Below, piece after piece: positions 2,627 to 40,527 of a stretch of 41,856 bases of DNA. Numbering within the stretch: position 1 is the first letter of the stretch; each line of letters starts with the position of its first letter. Made by a program: the position numbers and the translations under genes. The DNA is taken from UHGV virus genome UHGV-0391345; one strand, written 5' to 3'. This DNA comes from a virus. Under the pieces are notes generated by a model that worked only from the letters and a program-made list of their open reading frames with translations, ran no database searches and was not told the DNA's origin.

Positions 2627-3097
2627 ATGCCGCAACCATTTATCAATCCAAACTACCTGAATGCATATCCAAACGCATACCCGTATCAGCCGCAGATGCA
2701 ACCACCTATGGATCGTTTGCAACAGCTACAGGCACCATACCAGATGCCGCAGCAGACACAAGTACCACAAGTCCCACAAACCAATCAGGGAATATTATGG
2801 GTACAGGGAGAGGCAGGTGCAAAGTCTTATTTAGTAGCACCTAGCACATCCATATTGTTGATGGACAGCGAGAACGAATATTTTTATATTAAGACAACCG
2901 ATGCAGCAGGAATGCCAACACTCCGCACTTTTGAATATAAAGAGATTGTCAATGGGCAGAAAAAGGAATCTGTTCCAGCGGATAATCTGGATGATAAGTA
3001 TGTAACACGAAATGAGTACCAGGATTTAAAAGCAAAATACGAGGAATTATATGGACTTTTAGAAACCAGTACGGCGCCAACAGGAAAGGGGAAATAG
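2627..3097 (+). CDS. Pro/Gln/Tyr-rich N-terminal low-complexity protein with a globular C-terminal domain, unknown function
   Basis: 156 aa with a GGAGG RBS. N-terminal region is PYQPQMQPP...QQTQVPQVPQ. Confidence 0.45.
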   Translation: MPQPFINPNYLNAYPNAYPYQPQMQPPMDRLQQLQAPYQMPQQTQVPQVPQTNQGILWVQGEAGAKSYLVAPSTSILLMDSENEYFYIKTTDAAGMPTLRTFEYKEIVNGQKKESVPADNLDDKYVTRNEYQDLKAKYEELYGLLETSTAPTGKGK

Positions 3098-3101
3098 ATA
3101 T

Positions 3102-3350
3102 ATGAATCCATTATTTAATATGTTGGGCGGTAGCTCACCAATGGGTGGAATGATGCCTGGAATTGGTGGGGGAAACAACCCCATGCAAATGATACAGAAA
3201 TTCATGGAGTTTAAAAACAATTTTAGGGGAAACCCTCAGGAAGAAGTACAGAAAATGCTACAGTCTGGTCAAATAACTCAGCAGCAATTAGACCAGGCGC
3301 AACAGATGGCCCAGCAGTTTCAGCAGATGCTTGGAGGCATGAAAAAATAG
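3102..3350 (+). CDS. Met/Gly/Gln-rich small low-complexity protein
   Basis: 82 aa: GGMMPGIGGGNNPMQM...QQLDQAQQMAQQFQQMLGG. Confidence 0.4.
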   Translation: MNPLFNMLGGSSPMGGMMPGIGGGNNPMQMIQKFMEFKNNFRGNPQEEVQKMLQSGQITQQQLDQAQQMAQQFQQMLGGMKK

Positions 3351-3404
3351 TACATAAATCAATGCGCATGATTTTGTAAATATATTTTAAAAGGAGTAAA
3401 TTTT

Positions 3405-4109
3405 ATGGAAAGTGGTTACTCTTTAGCGGACATTGCTGCCGCTACAGGAAACGGAAATAACAGAAATGGTGATGGTATGTGGGGCGATTGGATTTGGATT
3501 ATCGTTCTCTTCCTGTTCGCCGGGGGAGGCTGGGGCAATGGCTTCGGCGGCAACGGTGCAAATGGAGCGGGACTCCAGGGTCTTGCAACCAGAGCAGATA
3601 TCAATGAGGGTTTTGCTTTGAACGGTATAGAAAACGGAATTAGAGGTATCCAGCAAGGTATCTGTGACAGCACATACGCTCTGAACAACACTATTACCAG
3701 CGGATTTAACGGTGTTGACCGTAGCTTATGCCAGATGGGATATCAGCTTCAGGATTGCTGCTGCCAGACACAGCGAGCAATTGATGGCGTAAACTACAAT
3801 CTGGCTACACAGTCTTGCGACACCAGAAATACCATTCAAACTGCAACCAGGGATATTCTGGACAATAATAACAGCAACACCAGGGCTATCCTTGACTTCT
3901 TAACTCAGGATAAGATTTCCAGCCTCCAGGCAGAGAATCAGACCCTTAGGTTCCAGGCAAGCCAGACAGCCCAGAACGGCTTTATTGATGCAGTTGGCAA
4001 CACCATCGTTGCACAGCTTCGTCAGCCACAGCCTGTACCGGCTTATACGGTTCCGGCGCCATATCCATATGCATCTAATTGTGGATGCAATGCTGGATGT
4101 GGATGCTAA
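3405..4109 (+). CDS. Gly/Asn-rich membrane-anchored protein with coiled-coil and Cys-rich C-terminus (NCGCNAGCGC), unknown function
   Basis: 234 aa. Has a glycine-zipper TM helix (WIWIIVLFLFAGGGWGNGFGG), a DCCCQTQ motif and a C-terminal CGC repeats. Confidence 0.45.
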   Translation: MESGYSLADIAAATGNGNNRNGDGMWGDWIWIIVLFLFAGGGWGNGFGGNGANGAGLQGLATRADINEGFALNGIENGIRGIQQGICDSTYALNNTITSGFNGVDRSLCQMGYQLQDCCCQTQRAIDGVNYNLATQSCDTRNTIQTATRDILDNNNSNTRAILDFLTQDKISSLQAENQTLRFQASQTAQNGFIDAVGNTIVAQLRQPQPVPAYTVPAPYPYASNCGCNAGCGC

Positions 4110-4315
4110 ACCGAAACGAACAGTTTTATGATAATCTTGCCTTATATGCAGCAGCATTACAAATGATTGATGTGTTTTTGCTTTTGGGAGAAGCTTCTAA
4201 TAATGATATTATGGAGGCATTGCAACAGCAAAACAAAGAATACATGGAAAAGATTATCGACCAAAACAACCGTATATTGCGTATCTTGTCCGAAAAGGAC
4301 ATGTCTACTGAATAG
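4079..4315 (+). CDS. small hypothetical protein (start uncertain; overlaps the preceding gene end)
   Basis: Open frame only; an internal Met near 4166 is a possible start. Confidence 0.2.
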   Translation: MWMQCWMWMLNRNEQFYDNLALYAAALQMIDVFLLLGEASNNDIMEALQQQNKEYMEKIIDQNNRILRILSEKDMSTE

Positions 4316-4380: not shown

Positions 4381-4779
4381 ATGGCAGATTTTGTAACTGC
4401 TGGCACACAAACTGTTGAAGTTAATGGAAGTGTACTGTTTGCAGCAAACCGGGTATATTCTTGCAATTGCCCAAACATAAGGCATGAGCCACTTTCTGGT
4501 AGAGTGGTGTTGCTTCCTGGCCTGTACCGTGTAGGATTTAACGGAAACTTTTCCGCAGCTGCCGCAGGTGATGTTATCTTTGAAGTGCAGCAGGACGGAG
4601 AAGGTATTCCAGGAGCAAGAATCCAGAATACAGTCGCAGCTGGAGCAACAATCAATGGTGCAGCAACTGTAGAAGTGCGAGTATGTAAGCCATGTTGCGC
4701 TACGCTCTCAGTGAAAAACGTTGGAACCGCAGCAGCAACGGTAACAGACGCTAACCTTGTAGTTAGCAGAATAGGTTAA
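4381..4779 (+). CDS. beta-rich Ala/Gly/Thr/Val protein (jelly-roll C1q/BclA-C-terminal-like impression), unknown function
   Basis: 132 aa, AGGAGG RBS. Composition is rich in Ala/Gly/Val/Thr. A CNC...CKPCC Cys cluster is present. Confidence 0.4.
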   Translation: MADFVTAGTQTVEVNGSVLFAANRVYSCNCPNIRHEPLSGRVVLLPGLYRVGFNGNFSAAAAGDVIFEVQQDGEGIPGARIQNTVAAGATINGAATVEVRVCKPCCATLSVKNVGTAAATVTDANLVVSRIG

Positions 4780-15316: not shown

Positions 15317-15726
15317 TGGCACAGAATGGGAACGGAGTATTTACCATAGACGGAGTTAATCTCCGCCTATGGGTAAAATCCTTAAAACGGAATTTTTCAG
15401 TCGCAGATAGTGAAAATTCTGGACGTTTGCAGTCTTACCGGATGCACCGGGATATCATTGGTACATTTTATAATTATACGCTTGATATTGATGCGGAAAG
15501 AAGTAATCCGGCTGACTATGATACGTTTTATGAAATCATATCTGCTCCGGTTGAGTCTCACGATATGGTATTTCCTTATGGACAGGAAACCAAAGAGTTT
15601 GAGGCATACATAACAAGCGGGGATGATGAAATAAAAATCAACAAGAATGGAAAAGAAGGGCAGCGTAACCATTGGACCGGGTTATCTATTACCTTTACCG
15701 CTATGGAGCCGCAGAGGAGGCCGTGA
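15316..15726 (+). CDS. distal tail protein-like (small)
   Basis: Position immediately after the tape measure gene. Confidence 0.4.
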   Translation: MAQNGNGVFTIDGVNLRLWVKSLKRNFSVADSENSGRLQSYRMHRDIIGTFYNYTLDIDAERSNPADYDTFYEIISAPVESHDMVFPYGQETKEFEAYITSGDDEIKINKNGKEGQRNHWTGLSITFTAMEPQRRP

Positions 15727-15727
15727 T

Positions 15728-17521
15728 GTGTTTTTAAAGCAATCCATATTATCTGACGCAGAACAGAACACTGAGGGATTAAAGATTGTTTATGACGACT
15801 TGGCCCCTTATGCCAAAGAAAATAGTACAGCATCCATTACAAGGCCTGGATTAAGACCGAGAATAGGGCTTCATCCAGGCCCTGGTTTACATCCGCATGG
15901 GACAATAATAGAGCAGGAATTTCCAGAATTAAAGCGAGATGATATTTCTTATCCCGGATATGCTCTATGCTTTCCACGGTTTTCTCTGCTTAATGGAAAG
16001 TATATCAATTTTCCAGATAATCCACTTCCGTATGGATATATAAGTCCAGAAGTATCAAATGAACAAGGATTGTTCGGATATGTTAAGCAAAGCCAAGGAC
16101 TTAAGCCCCAAATAGGTTTGCATCCAGGAATGTTTTTATATCCTAAATCAACAACTGAAAAGATAATTGAATCCCCCATGCTTACAGTAACCTTTAATCA
16201 AAAATTCACCAGTGTAGGATTGCTCTTTACTTTTAATATGATGTCTGGAGATTATTGTACACGAATGAGAGTAAAGTGGTACTCGGATAATAACCTCTTG
16301 TCAGATATGGAGTTTTCCCCGGATTCAGTCAGATATTTTTGTAATAATTATGTGAGAGGATATAACAAACTGGAAATAACGTTTTTGCAGACATCAAACC
16401 CCATAAGGCCAGTATTTGTTACCAGAATAGATTATGGAATATACCGTGATTTTCTGGACAACGAATTATTAGAAAGAAACTGTTTGCAAGAAATCAATGC
16501 AATATCAGAAAGCATAAGTATTAACACATTGAATTTCACGGTAAGGACAACATCCAATATACCGTTTGATTTACAGAAAAAGCAGAAACTTACTTTATAT
16601 TTCAACGGTGAGCTTATAGGAAATTTTTATCTTAAAAACGGTGCCAGGAAAAACAAAACGGATTACCATATGGACGCGCATGATGCAGTGGGCGTATTGG
16701 ATGGCAATGAATTCGCTGGAGGAATATATACAGGCCAGCCGGTTTCTGAAGTATTAGAGAAAATATTTGAGAATGAAGATTTTAATTATTTGTTGGATGA
16801 ATCATTTTCAGATATTCCGCTTTATGGATACATACCGTATACCACAAAGAGAAACGCATTAGTATACATATGCTTTGCTATTGGAGCTATTGCAGATACA
16901 AGCAATTACGATGGAATTGTTATATATCCGCAAGAAAATGTTTTAAATGGTGAATTTTTGAATGATGAAGTATTTTCTGGCGTTACATTGGAGCATTCTG
17001 ATATTGTCACTGGAATTCGTTTAACAGTCCATTCTTATCAGAAATCAAACGAAACGCAGGAATTGTATAATGATAATTTGAATGGCACGGCAGAAGTTAT
17101 TTTTAGTGAACCTTATCACAGTTTGGAGATAACTGGTGGTACCATTGGTCAGTATGGTGATAACTATGCCTATATAACTGGAACCGGTGGAAATGTAACA
17201 CTAACTGGTAAGAGATATAACCATCTTACCACTTCAATCCTTAAGGAAAATCCAGATATTGTATTTAACAAAAATATTCGCGAAGTAACAGATGCAACAT
17301 TAGTTTATAGCGGAAATGCGCAGCAAGTGCTTGACCGCGTATATGCATATTACCAGCGAGCAGAAAATGTGGTGGGGGATGTGCTTGTTGGAACGAAAAA
17401 ATTAGGACAGAAAGTCAAGATTGATACAGATTACGATGGATACCGCACCGGTATTATTGAGAGCTACAATTACAGCTTTTCTCCCAACGAAATTAAGGCA
17501 GAGGTAAAAATACATGAGTAA
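15728..17521 (+). CDS. tail-associated / baseplate hub protein (Tal-like)
   Basis: About 598 aa from a GTG start 7 nt after GAGGAGG. Position after the Dit-like gene. Confidence 0.45.
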   Translation: MFLKQSILSDAEQNTEGLKIVYDDLAPYAKENSTASITRPGLRPRIGLHPGPGLHPHGTIIEQEFPELKRDDISYPGYALCFPRFSLLNGKYINFPDNPLPYGYISPEVSNEQGLFGYVKQSQGLKPQIGLHPGMFLYPKSTTEKIIESPMLTVTFNQKFTSVGLLFTFNMMSGDYCTRMRVKWYSDNNLLSDMEFSPDSVRYFCNNYVRGYNKLEITFLQTSNPIRPVFVTRIDYGIYRDFLDNELLERNCLQEINAISESISINTLNFTVRTTSNIPFDLQKKQKLTLYFNGELIGNFYLKNGARKNKTDYHMDAHDAVGVLDGNEFAGGIYTGQPVSEVLEKIFENEDFNYLLDESFSDIPLYGYIPYTTKRNALVYICFAIGAIADTSNYDGIVIYPQENVLNGEFLNDEVFSGVTLEHSDIVTGIRLTVHSYQKSNETQELYNDNLNGTAEVIFSEPYHSLEITGGTIGQYGDNYAYITGTGGNVTLTGKRYNHLTTSILKENPDIVFNKNIREVTDATLVYSGNAQQVLDRVYAYYQRAENVVGDVLVGTKKLGQKVKIDTDYDGYRTGIIESYNYSFSPNEIKAEVKIHE

Positions 17522-19766: not shown

Positions 19767-20315
19767 ATGAATAACATAGAAAATATCCAAGAATATATAC
19801 CTACTGTGTATGTTAATGACTCTGAGCCAGATTTGGATGAGACAAACTTAAACAAAACAGAACAGGCAATAAAACGGGTAACCGATGCAGCCAATAAAGC
19901 AATTGATGCATTAAAGCAACTGGACCGGGAGAAGTTAGCGTTATCTGCTATATCTAACGTATTATCTGATGCTACAGATAAGGTTCCATCATTGGCTTTA
20001 GCTAATACAATGCAGCTCGCGATTAATGACTTAAATAGCAATTTGGGAAGTACAAATAATCGCGTATCCTCGCTTGAGGAAAATTTTTCCAGCGGTTATG
20101 ATGGCCCCCTTGCTGGATCCACGGTAAGAACCAAAGGAACAGAAGGATGGTATGTGGAATTGTCCAATAATAACCAGTGGGCAGCCATGACACTAAACAT
20201 TGGAGAGAGTATACGGTATCGCCTCCAAATTGAGAATACGGGGCAACTTACCATGTACCGGACAACTGACAACTGGGCAACCAATCAATCTAAAGTTGTT
20301 TCGGAGGGATGGTAA
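19767..20315 (+). CDS. tail fibre protein whose C-terminal half lies inside a candidate invertible segment
   Basis: N-terminal NLNKTEQAIKRV fibre motif. The left inverted repeat falls in codons LNSNL (20031-20045). Confidence 0.5.
   Translation: MNNIENIQEYIPTVYVNDSEPDLDETNLNKTEQAIKRVTDAANKAIDALKQLDREKLALSAISNVLSDATDKVPSLALANTMQLAINDLNSNLGSTNNRVSSLEENFSSGYDGPLAGSTVRTKGTEGWYVELSNNNQWAAMTLNIGESIRYRLQIENTGQLTMYRTTDNWATNQSKVVSEGW
20032..20045. repeat. left inverted repeat TAAATAGCAATTTG
   Basis: Its perfect reverse complement is at 20555-20568. Confidence 0.6.
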
Positions 20316-20323
20316 AATGATCA

Positions 20324-20584
20324 TTATGTCGGCTTATTAAGTTTCCAAACCTGGTTCCAAGTGGTTCCATTGTAAAAGTCATACCAAATTCCCGTATTAT
20401 TAAAGGCTATTGATGCAATCTCTCCGGATGCGTATTGCAACTGGATTGCCCGATCAGTGCGGTCAGAATAGACAGTTGTAAACCCATTAATGTTCTTAAC
20501 ACCATTCAGGATGACTTTGTTATTTGCCGTAGCAGCTGTATTGGAAACATCAGTCAAATTGCTATTTACTATATAAAAAACATA
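20324..20584 (-). other. silent alternative fibre C-terminal cassette (open frame without RBS or ATG; frame open to 20584)
   Basis: Minus-strand frame YVFYIVNSNL|TDVSNTAATANNKV...YNGTTWNQVWKLNKPT. The C-terminal motif resembles YRTTDNWATNQSKVV of the + strand gene. Confidence 0.45.
20555..20568. repeat. right inverted repeat CAAATTGCTATTTA
   Basis: Reverse complement of 20032-20045. Confidence 0.6.
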
Positions 20585-21897: not shown

Positions 21898-21930
21898 AAG
21901 CGCTAGAATTCAACTCTGACGCTTTTATAT
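21897..21930 (+). terminator. weak stem-loop terminator after the lysis gene
   Basis: AAAAGCG-loop-CGCTTTTAT. Confidence 0.35.
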
Positions 21931-21950
21931 AATATACCATCTTCGGAAAT

Positions 21951-21972: not shown

Positions 21973-22146
21973 GAGCCTACAAACCGCATAAAACCGTTGT
22001 ATTTTACGGGTCCGATTCCCGTCAGCAGCTTTTTCTTAAAACCTTGTAGATACGTAGAAAACAACGTATTTGCAAGGTTTTTTCATGTTTTTGAATAGCA
22101 CTTCCTCCGTCTGTCACGGAGGAAATAATTACAATATTTAAGATAT

Positions 22147-22183: not shown

Positions 22184-23272
22184 TCACATGATGAACTTTT
22201 CAAAGTGTTTATTGATTTTTTTATTTTGCCGGACAGATTCCAGGTCAATCACATTTCTGTATACAGTTTTCATGATATTGTCACTGGCCCATCCTCCCCG
22301 CTGCAATATATATTGGTCTGGTACACCTATGGCGTGCATAATGGATGCAGCATAATGCCGGAGGTCGTGAAAGCGGAAATGCGGTACATCAATCTTTTTA
22401 AGCACCCGCCCAAATCTATGTGTAATATAATCCGGGTTCATGTCAACTAATTTCCCTTTTTTACCCGATATCCGGTCAATTACAAATGCTGGCATTTCTA
22501 CATCCCGTGTACTATCATCCGTCTTTGGCTGTTTGATATACCATTGATTGTCTGGCCCCTTGACCATATTGTCTCTTACATGGATAATATGACCATCTAC
22601 GTTTTTATCAGTAAGGGCGCTTATCTCTCCTCGCCGGAGTGGGCCAAATGCAGCCAGTAATACGGCTATCTCTAAATCTGTACCTTTGATAGCGTCTAAC
22701 AGCTTTTTGATATCATTGTCATTGGGGCAGTATAAATCGGGGCGTTTTTTCTGCGGAAGCTTTACCTTTAAGGTTAAATCCGGCGCAAACATTTCCAAGG
22801 ATGCGGATAACAGGCCATAGGCATTTCTAACTGTCTTTGGAGACAGTTGTTTCCCTGCCAAATCACTTACCCATATCTGTACAGATGGATTAGATAGTTC
22901 TGAGAGCCGTTTACGCCCAAATAAGCCGTCAAAATATTGCTTTTGCATACCAATATACCCTCTAAGCGTAGAAGGGCTTAAAACGCCTTTTTTGACGCTC
23001 AAATAACGTTCGATAGCTTGGTTTACTGTTATATCTTCGTCCTCATCATCTTCCGATTCATTGTATCGCTCTATGGGCTTGTCTTTCATGTCTAATTTCC
23101 ATCTGGTAGCCATTTCTTTTGCTTCCTTGCGTGATGGGGCAACAAAGCTTTTGTAATGCCGCTTACCTTTATCATCTGTATACAGATACACTTGCACTCG
23201 GACATTTCCAGACGGAAGTACTCCTTTTTTTCTTTTCGGGGCTTTTATAGTCATTTTTCTTTCCTCCTTCAA
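22184..23272 (-). CDS. tyrosine integrase
   Basis: 362 aa. Catalytic region FHDLRHYAASIMHAIGVP...YRNV contains the H, R, H and Y boxes. N-terminal core-binding domain present. Confidence 0.85.
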   Translation of the reverse strand: MKEERKMTIKAPKRKKGVLPSGNVRVQVYLYTDDKGKRHYKSFVAPSRKEAKEMATRWKLDMKDKPIERYNESEDDEDEDITVNQAIERYLSVKKGVLSPSTLRGYIGMQKQYFDGLFGRKRLSELSNPSVQIWVSDLAGKQLSPKTVRNAYGLLSASLEMFAPDLTLKVKLPQKKRPDLYCPNDNDIKKLLDAIKGTDLEIAVLLAAFGPLRRGEISALTDKNVDGHIIHVRDNMVKGPDNQWYIKQPKTDDSTRDVEMPAFVIDRISGKKGKLVDMNPDYITHRFGRVLKKIDVPHFRFHDLRHYAASIMHAIGVPDQYILQRGGWASDNIMKTVYRNVIDLESVRQNKKINKHFEKFIM

Positions 23273-23425
23273 TTGATTTTCCTAAAAATAGGTATAAAAA
23301 ATACAGCTCCACAAAAATATTGCAAAGCCGCCCCGAAGATGGTACAATATAGGTGCAAATTATAATGCATATCTTCGGGTATGTAAGCCGGTTCCTGTTG
23401 GCGCAGGGGCCGGTTAATTTTGTTG

Positions 23426-26189: not shown

Positions 26190-26208
26190 GTAGAATTTTT
26201 TCTAAAAG
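26190..26208. promoter_or_regulatory. operator O3-like GTAGAATTTTTTCTAAAAG overlapping the cro RBS
   Basis: Matches the half-site consensus GTAGAA...TCTA. Confidence 0.4.
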
Positions 26209-26223
26209 AAAGGAGGATATAAG

Positions 26224-26632: not shown

Positions 26633-27113
26633 AATCAAGAAAAGCATTAAGGTGATAAGCGGCAAGCGAACCAATCAACCAATAAATACCAGTCAGGATT
26701 ATATTGAGGATGAAAGGCAAATGTATATTTTTCGTTTGTACCCAATGTGCAGGTAAAAATATTATGTGGATGGGAAAAATTGAATGTTTTAATCTATTCC
26801 TAAAAGTTCCAATTGTAATAAGAAATACTTTTTCAACCTCTAATTGATATTTTTTTCTATCGCACAAATAAGCAACATTTGTTAAACAACGTTGCTTATA
26901 TCCTCCTTTATTTTCATCATAATAGGTTGGGTATGATGTACCTGCTTGTTTGAATATTTCGTCAACATCTGGTATGTAAGATGACATTTCTTTTCCCGTG
27001 GTAAATCGACCATAAAGCCTTTTTGATTTTAAATACCAGTACGTATTTGAAATTATGCAATATACCCAAATACCAATGCATATAATAATGAGTTTCATTA
27101 GTTTGCTCCTCAC
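26586..27113 (-). CDS. AT-rich membrane protein (2 TM), unknown function
   Basis: N- and C-terminal TM helices. Opposite orientation to the surrounding early genes. Confidence 0.4.
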   Translation of the reverse strand: MRSKLMKLIIICIGIWVYCIISNTYWYLKSKRLYGRFTTGKEMSSYIPDVDEIFKQAGTSYPTYYDENKGGYKQRCLTNVAYLCDRKKYQLEVEKVFLITIGTFRNRLKHSIFPIHIIFLPAHWVQTKNIHLPFILNIILTGIYWLIGSLAAYHLNAFLDFTYLEYLQKLFEKIL

Positions 27114-36241: not shown

Positions 36242-36341
36242 GTTTCAGATTAAAGAAAAATAGATAAAGGAACACATATATGCACAGAATGAAAACTGAG
36301 CGATGGTCACCCGCCAAGATGATTCCACCGCTCTCGTAAAT

Positions 36342-36404: not shown

Positions 36405-37451
36405 ATGAGTACACAGACAATTAAAGCTGAAATAATTAACAATGTACTGGTAGCCATGTCCTTATATATTGTGGAGCAGCAGACTCTTAACATTCTGCAA
36501 AATGTAATGCAGCAGGAATTGGTAAGGGTAAATATGGAGGAAATAACTACTCTTCCGGCAGAAAGAAAGGATGATATAAGCCAGCGGAATCAGTACATAA
36601 TACAATTATTCCTGATTAAAAAACGCGATTTAGCAAGAGGAACCAAACAAAACTATCTGAATGCCATACGAAGATTGTTGACAGAAATAAACACAAAATC
36701 ATTGGACCAGATGGATACCACAGATATTGATTGGTATTTATCCCGATACGAAATTAGGAATGTGTCCAGCGGAGGAAAGAAAAATCAGCCCAGTACCTAC
36801 AACAATGAACGCCGTTTTCTATCAGCATTCTTTACATGGATGCGCCTTGAAAAGCTTATTACAGATAATCCGGTGGAACCAATACCTGCCAAGAAAGTAC
36901 CAATTAAACCAATTGATTATTACAGCCCAGAAGAATCTGCAAGGTTAAGGGACGCGTGCAAAAATATTCGCGAGAGGGCCTTACTGGAAGTGCTTCGAAG
37001 TACTGGGGCCAGGATAGGAGAAATTGCGGAAACAACTCTAGACCAGATAGACATGAGAACCGGCGATATATGGATACAGGGAGAGAAAGGCGGAAGATAC
37101 CGCACAATCTATCTGGATGATGATGCGCGACATTATTATGGACTGTATTTGGACAGCAGAAAAGATGATTGCCTGTATATGTTCCCACGCTCCAGAAAAC
37201 CGTATGGGAAAATGACTACTTGCGGATTCCGAGCAATATTGAAAACCATAAAAAAGAGGGCCGGATTAACATGCCGGGTATATCCGCATAAGTCACGCAA
37301 GACACTGGGAATGAATCTGAAGAACAGAGGCGTTGATATTGGGACTATACAGGAGATTATGGGACACGCAGACCCAGGAGTTACGGCACGGTATTATGCA
37401 CAGTCTAATCCCCGCACCCTTCGGTCGATAAGGGAAATGGTTAATGTGTAG
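36405..37451 (+). CDS. second tyrosine recombinase (XerC/D-phage integrase family)
   Basis: RSTGARIGEI (R box), HKSRKT (H-x-x-R), GHADPGVTARYY (H box and Tyr). GAGGAGG RBS. Confidence 0.75.
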   Translation: MSTQTIKAEIINNVLVAMSLYIVEQQTLNILQNVMQQELVRVNMEEITTLPAERKDDISQRNQYIIQLFLIKKRDLARGTKQNYLNAIRRLLTEINTKSLDQMDTTDIDWYLSRYEIRNVSSGGKKNQPSTYNNERRFLSAFFTWMRLEKLITDNPVEPIPAKKVPIKPIDYYSPEESARLRDACKNIRERALLEVLRSTGARIGEIAETTLDQIDMRTGDIWIQGEKGGRYRTIYLDDDARHYYGLYLDSRKDDCLYMFPRSRKPYGKMTTCGFRAILKTIKKRAGLTCRVYPHKSRKTLGMNLKNRGVDIGTIQEIMGHADPGVTARYYAQSNPRTLRSIREMVNV

Positions 37452-38912: not shown

Positions 38913-39335
38913 GTGGGGCTTACACCGAAGCAGAAAGCGTTTGCGGATTATTATATTGAGTGTGGAAATGCGGCAGAGGCTGCGAGAAAGGCTGGTTATA
39001 GCTTACGGACAGCAGACGCAATAGGACGTGAAAACTTACGGAAGCCTACGGTTTCTGCATATATCTCCGAGCGACAGAAACAGATTGATGATTGCCGCAT
39101 AGCTGATGCTGCTGAAATACTGCAATACCTTACGTCTGTAATGCGCGGAGAAGTAAAAGACCAATTCGGACTTGATGCTCCGCTGGCAGAGAGAACTAAA
39201 GCGGCGGTGGAACTGGCAAAACGTAAGATAGATACAGACAAAAAGCAGGAGGGCGGCGGGATTACCATTGTCAACAACATACCAAGACCAGACAACAATA
39301 AATCTGACCGATGTAATCGCTCCGTCCTTCTATGA
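38913..39335 (+). CDS. terminase small subunit
   Basis: N-terminal KQKAFADYYIECGNAAEAARKAGYS HTH typical of terminase small subunits. Precedes the large subunit gene. Confidence 0.6.
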   Translation: MGLTPKQKAFADYYIECGNAAEAARKAGYSLRTADAIGRENLRKPTVSAYISERQKQIDDCRIADAAEILQYLTSVMRGEVKDQFGLDAPLAERTKAAVELAKRKIDTDKKQEGGGITIVNNIPRPDNNKSDRCNRSVLL

Positions 39336-40527
39336 TGTTCATTGGGATATCCTTGAAGGTAAACATACATATTATGACCTGTACGGTGGGCGAGGTTCTG
39401 CGAAGTCCTCTTTTATATCAGCGGAGATTGTGCTAGGTATGATGAATGACCCAGAGGCCAATGCTGTCATATTTCGTAAGTACGCCGTAACCATTGGAGA
39501 ATCAGTATTTGAGCAGATACAGTGGGCCATAGATGCGTTAGGAGTAACAGATTTATGGGAATCCCGTACAAGCCCATACAGATTCGTTTATAAGCCAACA
39601 GGACAAAAGATAATATTTCGTGGACTTGATAAGGCAAAGAAAACAAAGTCTATAAAGGCCAGTAAAGGATATTTTAAATACCTATGGTTTGAAGAACTAG
39701 ACGAATTTGCAGGACCAGAGGAAATACGAACTGTTGAACAGTCAGTATTGCGTGGCGGTAGCAAGTTTGTTGTATTCAAATCCTTTAACCCGCCCATCAG
39801 CCAAAGTAACTGGGCTAATCAGTATGTAAATACGCCGGATGATAGCGCATACAGGCATAAAAGCGATTACCGTTCTGTACCGGCAGAATGGTTAGGGGAA
39901 ATGTTTGTTGAGCGCGCCGAACATCTTAAAGCTACCAATGAGCGGGCATATAATCATGAGTATTTAGGTCTACCGGTTGGACTTGGTACAAATATATTTG
40001 ACATGTTGGATGTGCGAACAATCACAGACGAAGAAATCAAGGGATACCAAAGCATTTACCAGGGGCAGGACTGGGGCTGGTTCCCGGACCCCAAAGCATT
40101 TATCCGGGCTGCATACATACCGAACAAGGAAATGGTTGTGCTGCTTGATGAAATGGGAGGCTGCAAAATCCGTAACAGTAAGATGGCGGAGGATATACAG
40201 ACGGCTGGGTACGATGATTATACAATCTATTGCGGAGTGGATGAAGAAGAAAGCATTATAGACTTCCGTGACGCTGGTTTACCGGCCCGCAGAGCCATTG
40301 TGACGCCAGGAAGTAGGAAATATACCTTTGAGTGGTTGCAGTGCCGTACAATCGTTATAGACCCGGCCCGCACGCCGCGAGCATATAAAGAAATCATAGA
40401 ATACGAGCATGAGGTAGACAGCAACGGAGAAGTGATAGCGGATTATCCAGATGGAAACGACCACTGGATTGACGCTCTTCGTTATGCCACAAGCCCGTTG
40501 TCAATGAGAAGGGGGAACAGTGCATGA
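39268..40527 (+). CDS. terminase large subunit
   Basis: Walker A LYGGRGSAKS near the N-terminus. 419 aa, with a C-terminal nuclease region. TTG start, uncertain. Confidence 0.85.
   Translation: MSTTYQDQTTINLTDVIAPSFYDVHWDILEGKHTYYDLYGGRGSAKSSFISAEIVLGMMNDPEANAVIFRKYAVTIGESVFEQIQWAIDALGVTDLWESRTSPYRFVYKPTGQKIIFRGLDKAKKTKSIKASKGYFKYLWFEELDEFAGPEEIRTVEQSVLRGGSKFVVFKSFNPPISQSNWANQYVNTPDDSAYRHKSDYRSVPAEWLGEMFVERAEHLKATNERAYNHEYLGLPVGLGTNIFDMLDVRTITDEEIKGYQSIYQGQDWGWFPDPKAFIRAAYIPNKEMVVLLDEMGGCKIRNSKMAEDIQTAGYDDYTIYCGVDEEESIIDFRDAGLPARRAIVTPGSRKYTFEWLQCRTIVIDPARTPRAYKEIIEYEHEVDSNGEVIADYPDGNDHWIDALRYATSPLSMRRGNSA

Follow-up and report, generated by a model that had tools for sequence, protein, structure and literature searches.

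Results

Organization of the locus

We analysed a 41,856-nucleotide stretch of viral DNA (UHGV virus genome UHGV-0391345; called the window in what follows and numbered from its first letter) and examined its last tail-module gene, whose C-terminal coding part appears to be exchangeable by inversion of a short DNA segment. This distal gene, fibre-like and putatively receptor-binding, is an open reading frame (ORF) of 182 codons on the plus strand with a ribosome-binding site (RBS), at 19767..20315, upstream of the lysis genes. It contains the left arm (IR-L; TAAATAGCAATTTG, 20032-20045, plus strand) of an inverted repeat (IR) whose right arm (IR-R; CAAATTGCTATTTA, 20555-20568, minus strand) is its exact reverse complement. 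The repeat is perfect over 14 bp and does not extend beyond, and 509 nt separate its arms. Each arm holds a 12-bp core, at 20033-20044 (the proposed crossover site) and 20556-20567. Including both repeats the segment measures 537 bp (20032..20568), and its counterparts in sibling phages occur in either orientation, the breakpoints falling at the cores.

IR-L divides the gene into a constant N-terminal part (residues 1-93, 19767..20045, ending ...LNSNL), which is 99-100% identical in dozens of proteins, and a variable cassette of the GSTNN type (cassette 1; 89 aa plus stop, 20046..20315), which is the one expressed at present. A second cassette, of the TDVSN type (cassette 2; 76 aa plus stop, 20324..20554), lies silent and convergent on the minus strand. 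At the repeat the plus strand reads TTA AAT AGC AAT TTG (LNSNL, residues 89-93 of the protein) and the minus strand GTA AAT AGC AAT TTG (VNSNL), in identical codon phase. Past the repeat the minus frame continues with TDVSNTAATANNKV (TDVSN) to ...WKLNKPT, 76 codons in all, and stops at 20324-20326, tail to tail with the stop of the expressed gene and 8 nt from it. The same frame has a stop codon six codons upstream of NSNL, and we found neither an ATG, nor a Shine-Dalgarno sequence, nor a promoter-like site facing it. An earlier sequence-only reading of this DNA had described a perfect 14-bp inverted repeat at these positions, both copies encoding NSNL in one codon phase, a convergent minus frame that lacks RBS and ATG and ends 8 nt from the fibre gene stop, and an inversion that would join 93 constant residues in frame to an alternative 76. 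The coordinates, the perfection of the repeat, the translations of both strands and the two lengths were all verified.

That reading had also noted that the start and the C-terminus of the alternative module resemble the expressed ones. This resemblance was not statistically detectable: comparison of the two cassettes gave a BLASTP E value of 4.6 and an hhalign probability of 0.04%, which amounts to no detectable homology, and only a short NTG...Y..DG.TW-like motif, visible by eye, is common to both modules. Several small tip cassettes end in a like motif (..NTG..Y.Y.DG.TW..), reminiscent of an Asp-box hairpin, while their overall sequences are not detectably related.

Both orientations among related phages

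The predicted fusion of residues 1-93 to the 76-aa cassette was used as a query against 5.8 billion proteins. Two natural proteins of 169 aa matched it over their full length with 100% coverage, P0001 at 90% and P0002 at 82% identity (proteins and loci from public data carry P and L numbers here), and in both the TDVSN-type cassette that is silent in the window is expressed as a fusion with the constant part. Dozens more proteins, of 151-290 aa in total, were 99-100% identical through ...LNSNL and diverged completely right after L93. Because the homologues diverge completely after this motif, the boundary between constant and variable parts coincides exactly with the position of the repeat.

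In the loci that encode P0001 (L001 and L002) the expressed tip is TDVSN-like, and the silent cassette that follows the same inverted core is a different one, ELESGAATINTDW.... Inversion of L001 in silico yields a 193-aa protein whose exact sequence is present in public data as P0073. The contigs with P0073 (L013 and L014), which come from other samples, contain the 563-bp segment of L001 in the opposite orientation at 99.8% and 100% identity; blastn placed the breakpoints at the 12-bp cores, and L001 inverted in silico aligned end to end. L125 and L126 are likewise inverted with respect to each other, precisely from core to core and with collinear flanks (98.8% identity over 488 bp), and L131 and L134 form another flipped pair at 95.9% identity. 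At least three cassette pairs are found in nature in both orientations, at 96-100% identity and with breakpoints at the core. Further cases include the A/B cassette pair, for which L017 and L019 show one state and L021 and the Enterocloster prophage L122 the opposite one, and the cassette types PYIDTSKK and ANKNIIG/AAANAKV, each expressed in some loci and silent in others. About 60 related loci share a uniform layout of one expressed and one convergent silent tip. Two proposals of the sequence-only reading were borne out in this way: a C-terminus switch resembling the Mu G segment, with no adjacent invertase, for which relatives carry the segment both ways with breakpoints at the repeat, and an inversion-made fusion protein, for which full-length natural homologues exist.

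A conserved 12-bp core

The core, AAATAGCAATTT, is made up of the codons AAT AGC AAT TT (NSNL) and was identical at partner sites in about 39 distinct site contexts, with flanks that vary immediately outside it. On inversion, the base that comes directly after the core goes along with the cassette, which places the crossover inside the core. Otherwise identical loci may differ in sequence outside IR-R while repeat and cassette are unchanged. More than 20 tip types are joined by the identical core to at least four N-terminal scaffolds, one of them an unrelated protein of 325 aa, and in more distant relatives, with N-termini 38-47% identical, CTAAATAGCAA is kept within repeats of 13-38 nt. Both arms of L150 have a variant core, AAATTCCAATTT, in which two central bases are changed at both sites and NSNL is still encoded; such co-variation of the arms is what one would expect of a strand-exchange region that needs identity in both partners. 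IR-R alone is degenerate in seven loci (L129, L135, L136, L151, L152, L153 and L156), in two of which (L129 and L153) the silent cassette is also truncated. Exactly two sites and two cassettes are present in the window and in almost every close relative, and four sites were seen only in L209.

A separate, more distant fibre family (L026-L031; N-terminus 54-59% identical) diverges at another joint, GTTAAATGGCGA, near position 4282, which reads LNGE or LNGD. Two contigs of this family end exactly at that joint, and in L029 a second copy of GTTAAATGGCGA follows the stop codon at 4727, in direct rather than inverted orientation.

The silent cassette and the state of the window copy

We compared the silent cassette of the window with its expressed or silent homologues by the ratio of nonsynonymous to synonymous substitution rates (dN/dS). 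The values lay between 0.07 and 0.15, at dS of about 0.9 or more, and this range includes a silent-versus-silent comparison; other cassette families gave 0.05-0.44. Without translation a fragment would be expected to approach 1; by this measure the silent cassette of the window is a working coding module under purifying selection. It is intact and equal in length to its expressed homologues, and both repeat arms are perfect. We think it reasonably probable that the window copy still flips.

Seven of the 53 IMG/VR contigs with the constant part end no more than 70 nt past the joint, where about 0.1 would be expected by our own arithmetic. The contigs ending near the joint are among L022-L024, L030, L031, L178-L180 and L199, the others stopping slightly further on, and some of the joint-ending entries are, to judge by their IMG identifiers, presumably single-genome assemblies. 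These ends suggest that the joint is heterogeneous or that one genome holds several related prophages. We take them as no more than a hint of inversion within a culture, since the latter situation gives the same breaks.

Recombinases encoded in the window

No serine recombinase was detected in the window by a non-exhaustive Pfam scan (including PF00239) of about 40 of the larger ORFs, by tblastn of the window with a Gin/Hin-like sequence, or by a six-frame scan for the catalytic motif Y.R.S[ST]..Q. These searches bear out the earlier statement that the window has two tyrosine recombinases and no serine invertase.

The first of the two is the phage integrase (tyrosine family, PHROG 1; 22184..23272, minus strand), which we judge not to be the invertase. 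Its attachment site core (ACGGGTCCGATTCCCGTCAGCAGCTT, 26 bp, 22006..22031) was mapped from prophage ends: contigs from the integrase side of prophages end at 22006, and contigs from the lysis side, together with the Enterocloster hominis prophage L122, lose homology at 22030-22032. This attP core is GC-rich, looks by eye like the 3' end of a tRNA gene, and has no resemblance to the AT-rich core of the switch. Nor does the integrase show similarity to the switch-adjacent recombinases of the L204 type described below. Three copies of ATGCAACACGGA (21951, 21963 and 22157) surround the attP core, are confined to the attP region and are probably arm-type integrase sites. The integrase gene is also bracketed by a 19-nt inverted repeat (21928-21946 / 23333-23351, 89% complementary). 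A 471-aa tyrosine integrase in L122 was considered as a sign of an integrase swap and rejected, as it is part of a separate small element beside attR; that region (L122 8323-12215, directly past attR) also encodes a Rep protein (Viral_Rep / Gemini_AL1) and an FtsK-like ATPase, and looks like a small integrative element or satellite lodged by the prophage.

The second is a 348-aa Xer-like ('armless') tyrosine recombinase (36405..37451, plus strand; Pfam Phage_integrase and SAM_4/SAM_1), our candidate invertase. The longest ORF begins at 36303; we used 36405, the start codon of most homologues. The protein consists of a SAM-like core-binding domain and a catalytic domain, scores below the cut-off of the XerA/XerD-like NCBIfam models, and has XerA, XerC-like and XerD proteins as its closest solved structures. 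The alignment-invariant columns R203, K228, H295, R298, H321 and Y331 correspond, by our own reading, to the R-K-H-R-H-Y catalytic residues of tyrosine recombinases.

Recombinase genes adjoin homologous switches in distant relatives. In L204 and L209 the gene of a 354-aa Xer-like recombinase lies among four copies of TAAATAGCAA (+, -, +, -), and the silent cassettes there include the tip that L203 expresses; L209 would constitute a small shufflon that inverts its own recombinase gene. In L209 (2271-4723, contig IMGVR_UViG_3300029533_000005) this gene occupies 3001-4062, between core copies. L210 and L212 (2160-4020) have a 78%-identical recombinase gene about 300 nt from a core pair within a 526-aa fibre gene; the silent cassette of this core pair is just 12 codons long. 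The Xer-like protein of the window aligned with the L204/L209 recombinase at 27% identity over 352 aa (E value 7e-34), over the full length and including the N-terminal extension, and it scored 116 bits to this switch-embedded recombinase versus 58-76 bits to solved Xer proteins. The Xer-like gene is present in all full-length close relatives with the switch, and the distant switch-bearing contig L177/L258 encodes a homologue at 62% identity about 22 kb from its switch.

The tail gene and its genomic context

The window comprises nearly all of a temperate Enterocloster (Lachnospiraceae) phage, with a minor capsid protein at 422-1645 and a terminase at 38913-40527. After the tail module come a 137-aa gene of unknown function, a 41-aa ORF and an M15 endolysin with cell-wall-binding repeats; beyond the lysis genes lie the tyrosine integrase on the minus strand, then the repressor region and early genes. 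Its relatives are Enterocloster prophages, among them L122 in E. hominis CLA-SR-H021, and homologues are named by their sources as belonging to E. aldenensis, E. bolteae and E. citroniae. No GenBank phage record matched the locus in a megablast search.

Sources label homologues of the 182-aa protein 'pyocin knob domain-containing protein' or 'Baseplate component'. Neither the fibre gene nor the cassette was assigned to a family when these and the neighbouring genes were scanned against Pfam, PHROG and NCBIfam, and solved structures yielded no sequence match to the fibre protein or to its 'pyocin knob' variant P0029. In an AF2 model of low confidence (pLDDT 53) the protein forms helices over residues 25-106, then six beta strands over 118-181. 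Some variant tips have an H-type lectin / gp53-like fibre-tip domain, or collagen repeats. From the gene position, the source names of homologues and the lectin and fibre-tip domains of some variant tips we infer that 'tail fibre' is the appropriate label.

Two other repeats in the window deserve mention. A perfect 14-nt inverted repeat (16198-16211 / 16948-16961) inside the 624-aa tail gene 15647..17521 is probably due to chance, no long minus-strand ORF having been noticed between its arms in the ORF lists. In the immunity region a 20-nt inverted repeat (26204-26223 / 26895-26914, 95% complementary, arms 671 nt apart) has an RBS-like sequence, AAAGGAGGATATAAG, in each arm, and may reflect two divergent genes that share a translation start region, or another invertible element.

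Discussion

A probable two-state tip switch and its alternatives

We consider it likely that the last tail gene of this phage is a two-state site-specific inversion switch, operated most probably by a tyrosine recombinase acting in trans. If crossover takes place inside both cores, the 537-bp segment would flip and the constant 93 residues would be joined in frame to the 76-aa TDVSN tip in place of the 89-aa GSTNN tip. A population of lysogens would then release virions with either of two distal tips, which presumably differ in receptor specificity. The most likely enzyme would be a tyrosine recombinase in trans, with the phage's own Xer-like protein as first choice.

Several observations weigh against this reading. 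The exact 182-aa protein occurs in 67 blocks of the public collection; 23 contigs with it were read, nine loci were inspected for their arrangement, and all nine were in the window orientation. Samples that contain this phage include ERR11027644, SRR30514978, ERZ505748 and SAMN18386014. The exact inverted fusion of the window pair was absent from about 15 billion proteins, and its inverted junction (the constant part followed by TAAATAGCAATTTG and ACTGATGTTTCC, that is GACTTAAATAGCAATTTGACTGATG..., plus the reciprocal junction) had no exact match in the IMG/VR and JGI metagenome contigs. We infer a receptor-binding role of the tips for a protein that matches no family and whose structure model is of low confidence. 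The missing inverted form limits the claim of current activity without refuting it. It would fit a relic, in which the NSNL joint is a hotspot of tip exchange between phages, the inversions lie in the past, and the window copy is locked in one orientation; a second common pair (AKTNAKV expressed, PYID silent) was likewise seen in one orientation only, in at least nine loci, and some relatives have decayed, as the seven degenerate right arms and two truncated cassettes indicate. Against this, the window has two perfect arms and an intact cassette of the same length as its expressed homologues, with a dN/dS far below the neutral value. Assemblies, moreover, display the majority orientation alone and leave minority orientations invisible, and a majority orientation may be fixed by selection or by a low flipping rate. 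We regard a relic as unlikely. Another alternative is that the 14-bp repeat is a chance match and the minus frame meaningless. In simulations of the window under a first-order Markov model, perfect 14-mer inverted repeats with arms within 1 kb occurred at a mean of 0.23 pairs, with at least one in 14.5% of simulations (about 15% of composition-matched windows), and the actual window has about seven, mostly hairpins and several of them terminator hairpins; because such repeats are not rare in simulated windows, the repeat alone is weak evidence. Chance is excluded because the repeat is placed in frame and its core is conserved in about 60 related loci, and the flipped pairs, the co-variation of the L150 arms and the purifying selection on the cassette speak against it too. 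The comparative data refute this alternative, and we give it practically no weight.

As to the enzyme, we tentatively put the Xer-like protein (36405-37451), acting in trans, at somewhat under an even chance, on the strength of its similarity to the switch-embedded recombinase and the presence of its gene in switch-bearing genomes. Its gene lies 16 kb from the switch, nothing site-like was found among the repeats around it, and no copy of the core was found within 2.5 kb of window-type Xer-like genes in 51 related loci (260 kb). An identity of 27% is ordinary between Xer-like proteins. Members of the family occur widely among Lachnospiraceae prophages, and also in some phages that our fibre N-terminus searches, limited to shared peptide patterns, did not detect; for these two reasons the gene may have another primary role. 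Co-occurrence does not discriminate it from the integrase, both being present in all full-length close relatives. At 1.6 kb from IR-R the integrase is closer to the switch than any other recombinase, and close relatives conserve it, but a double role as invertase seems very improbable to us: its GC-rich, tRNA-3'-end-like attP core is unlike AAATAGCAATTT, it has no similarity to the recombinases embedded in homologous switches, and the three putative arm-type repeats occur only in the attP region. A real switch served by an invertase of the Enterocloster host, or of a co-resident prophage of the L204 type, is a more serious contender that we nevertheless hold to be rather unlikely. RecV of C. 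difficile is a trans-acting global invertase. Mpi, cited in PMC6109161, is another. No recombinase adjoins the switch, the window-type Xer-like gene is never near a core copy, the closest relatives of the switch-embedded recombinase are just 27% identical to the Xer-like protein of the window, and a shared host enzyme would explain why one core serves phage lineages with fibre N-termini 38-47% identical. A phage that depended on a host enzyme would, however, lose its switch on changing host, and the Xer-like gene accompanies the switch in all full-length close relatives and even in the distant L177/L258. The sequence-only reading had named a tyrosine recombinase or a host enzyme as the possible agent, and both are still candidates; its remark that this would be unusual does not stand, both having been proposed for Bifidobacterium prophages in 2018 (PMC6109161).

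Comparison with known inversion systems

The switch recalls the Mu G segment and its relatives (Mu Gin, P1 C/Cin, e14 Pin and p15B Min), in which inverted repeats inside a tail-fibre gene bound the invertible segment, a constant N-terminus is followed by two convergent alternative C-termini, one of them joined to the promoter-proximal part, and a host-range switch is the presumed outcome. Systems of that type have a small serine invertase beside the segment, 26-bp gix-type sites in 34-bp repeats and a Fis-dependent enhancer; crossover at gix/hix-type sites has a 2-bp centre, and each variable part brings along a chaperone gene (U/U'). The window differs in several of these respects. No serine recombinase was detected in it, the neighbours of the segment being the 137-aa protein, the 41-aa ORF and the M15 endolysin; its partner sites share 12 bp only, and the core has, to our knowledge, no resemblance to gix or hix; and the segment consists of the two cassettes alone (76-89 codons), with no accompanying chaperone gene. 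The switch follows the logic of the Mu G and P1 C segments but is not a member of that family, because serine invertase, gix-type sites and co-inverted chaperone genes are all missing.

Closer parallels are found among tyrosine recombinase systems. In the R64 shufflon multiple segments are flanked by 19-bp conserved sfx repeats, and the recombinase Rci is encoded adjacent to them. Rci, a tyrosine recombinase, swaps the C-terminus of the adhesin-like tip PilV at short asymmetric sites, much as proposed here, and assemblies of the R64 / IncI shufflon break at the site even in clones (PMC5430464); unlike the window, this is a plasmid pilus system and not a phage tail. The Rin shufflon, found in Bifidobacterium prophages, combines 11-bp rix sites with a Xer-like tyrosine invertase encoded next to the cassettes (Mavrich et al. 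2018; PMC6109161). As in the window, a phage-encoded receptor-binding protein varies in its C-terminus through short sites at the joint of constant and variable parts, and besides its integrase the element encodes a tyrosine recombinase predicted to be Xer-like and armless, whose action on the switch is in the window only a candidate role. A short crossover sequence identical in partner sites at the joint is common to the window and to the Rin/rix and Rci/sfx shufflons. Rin, in contrast, adjoins several tandem cassettes, where the window has one silent cassette and a candidate enzyme 16 kb away; the site sequences are unrelated (TTCCCTAACCC for rix versus AAATAGCAATTT), and the hosts are Actinobacteria rather than the Clostridia concerned here. 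The distant relative L209, with its recombinase among four sites, has a Rin-like layout.

The second locus of the bifidophages 689b-1 and Bb423phi2 is similar in another respect. An inversion of about 500 bp there involves the 3' end of a structural gene and a small gene fragment, with an 8-bp crossover and no flanking recombinase, and an invertase acting in trans was proposed (PMC6109161). The size of the inversion, the very short site and the lack of a flanking recombinase are as in the window; the sequences and hosts are unrelated. That case comprises one genome pair and genes of unknown function, whereas the type described here is known from about 60 loci, several pairs of them flipped, and a particular enzyme can be named as candidate. 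Phage tail genes also appear among the targets of programmed inversion in a systematic survey (PMC9881135). In the literature that we searched we found no description of such a switch in Lachnospiraceae phages. What is new is a tip switch of two cassettes and a 12-bp core that occurs widely among Enterocloster prophages; its kind is known from the Mu G segment and from the Rin shufflon and trans-inversion of bifidophages.

Implications

Going beyond this phage, it is conceivable, and we advance it only as a tentative idea, that Lachnospiraceae prophages share AAATAGCAATTT as a universal 12-bp joint at which an Xer-like recombinase, its gene distant from the joint or in some cases within it, would flip tip pairs and would also let phages with unrelated scaffolds trade cassettes. 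If true, the shared joint would be a cassette marketplace for receptor-binding tips, in its logic nearer to an integron or shufflon than to Mu.

The host range of phages of gut Clostridia is poorly understood, and their hosts are hard to work with. If confirmed, the present findings would establish a compact two-state tip switch, widespread in Enterocloster/Lachnospiraceae prophages and furnished with more than 20 interchangeable tip modules. They would account for the frequent assembly breaks at the fibre gene, provide a minimal 12-bp site and a candidate recombinase for engineering invertible or swappable receptor-binding tips, and enlarge the small set of phage tip switches ascribed to tyrosine rather than serine recombinases with one whose enzyme would act from a distance. 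Such a switch could be how a single prophage lineage continues to reach surface receptors that vary.

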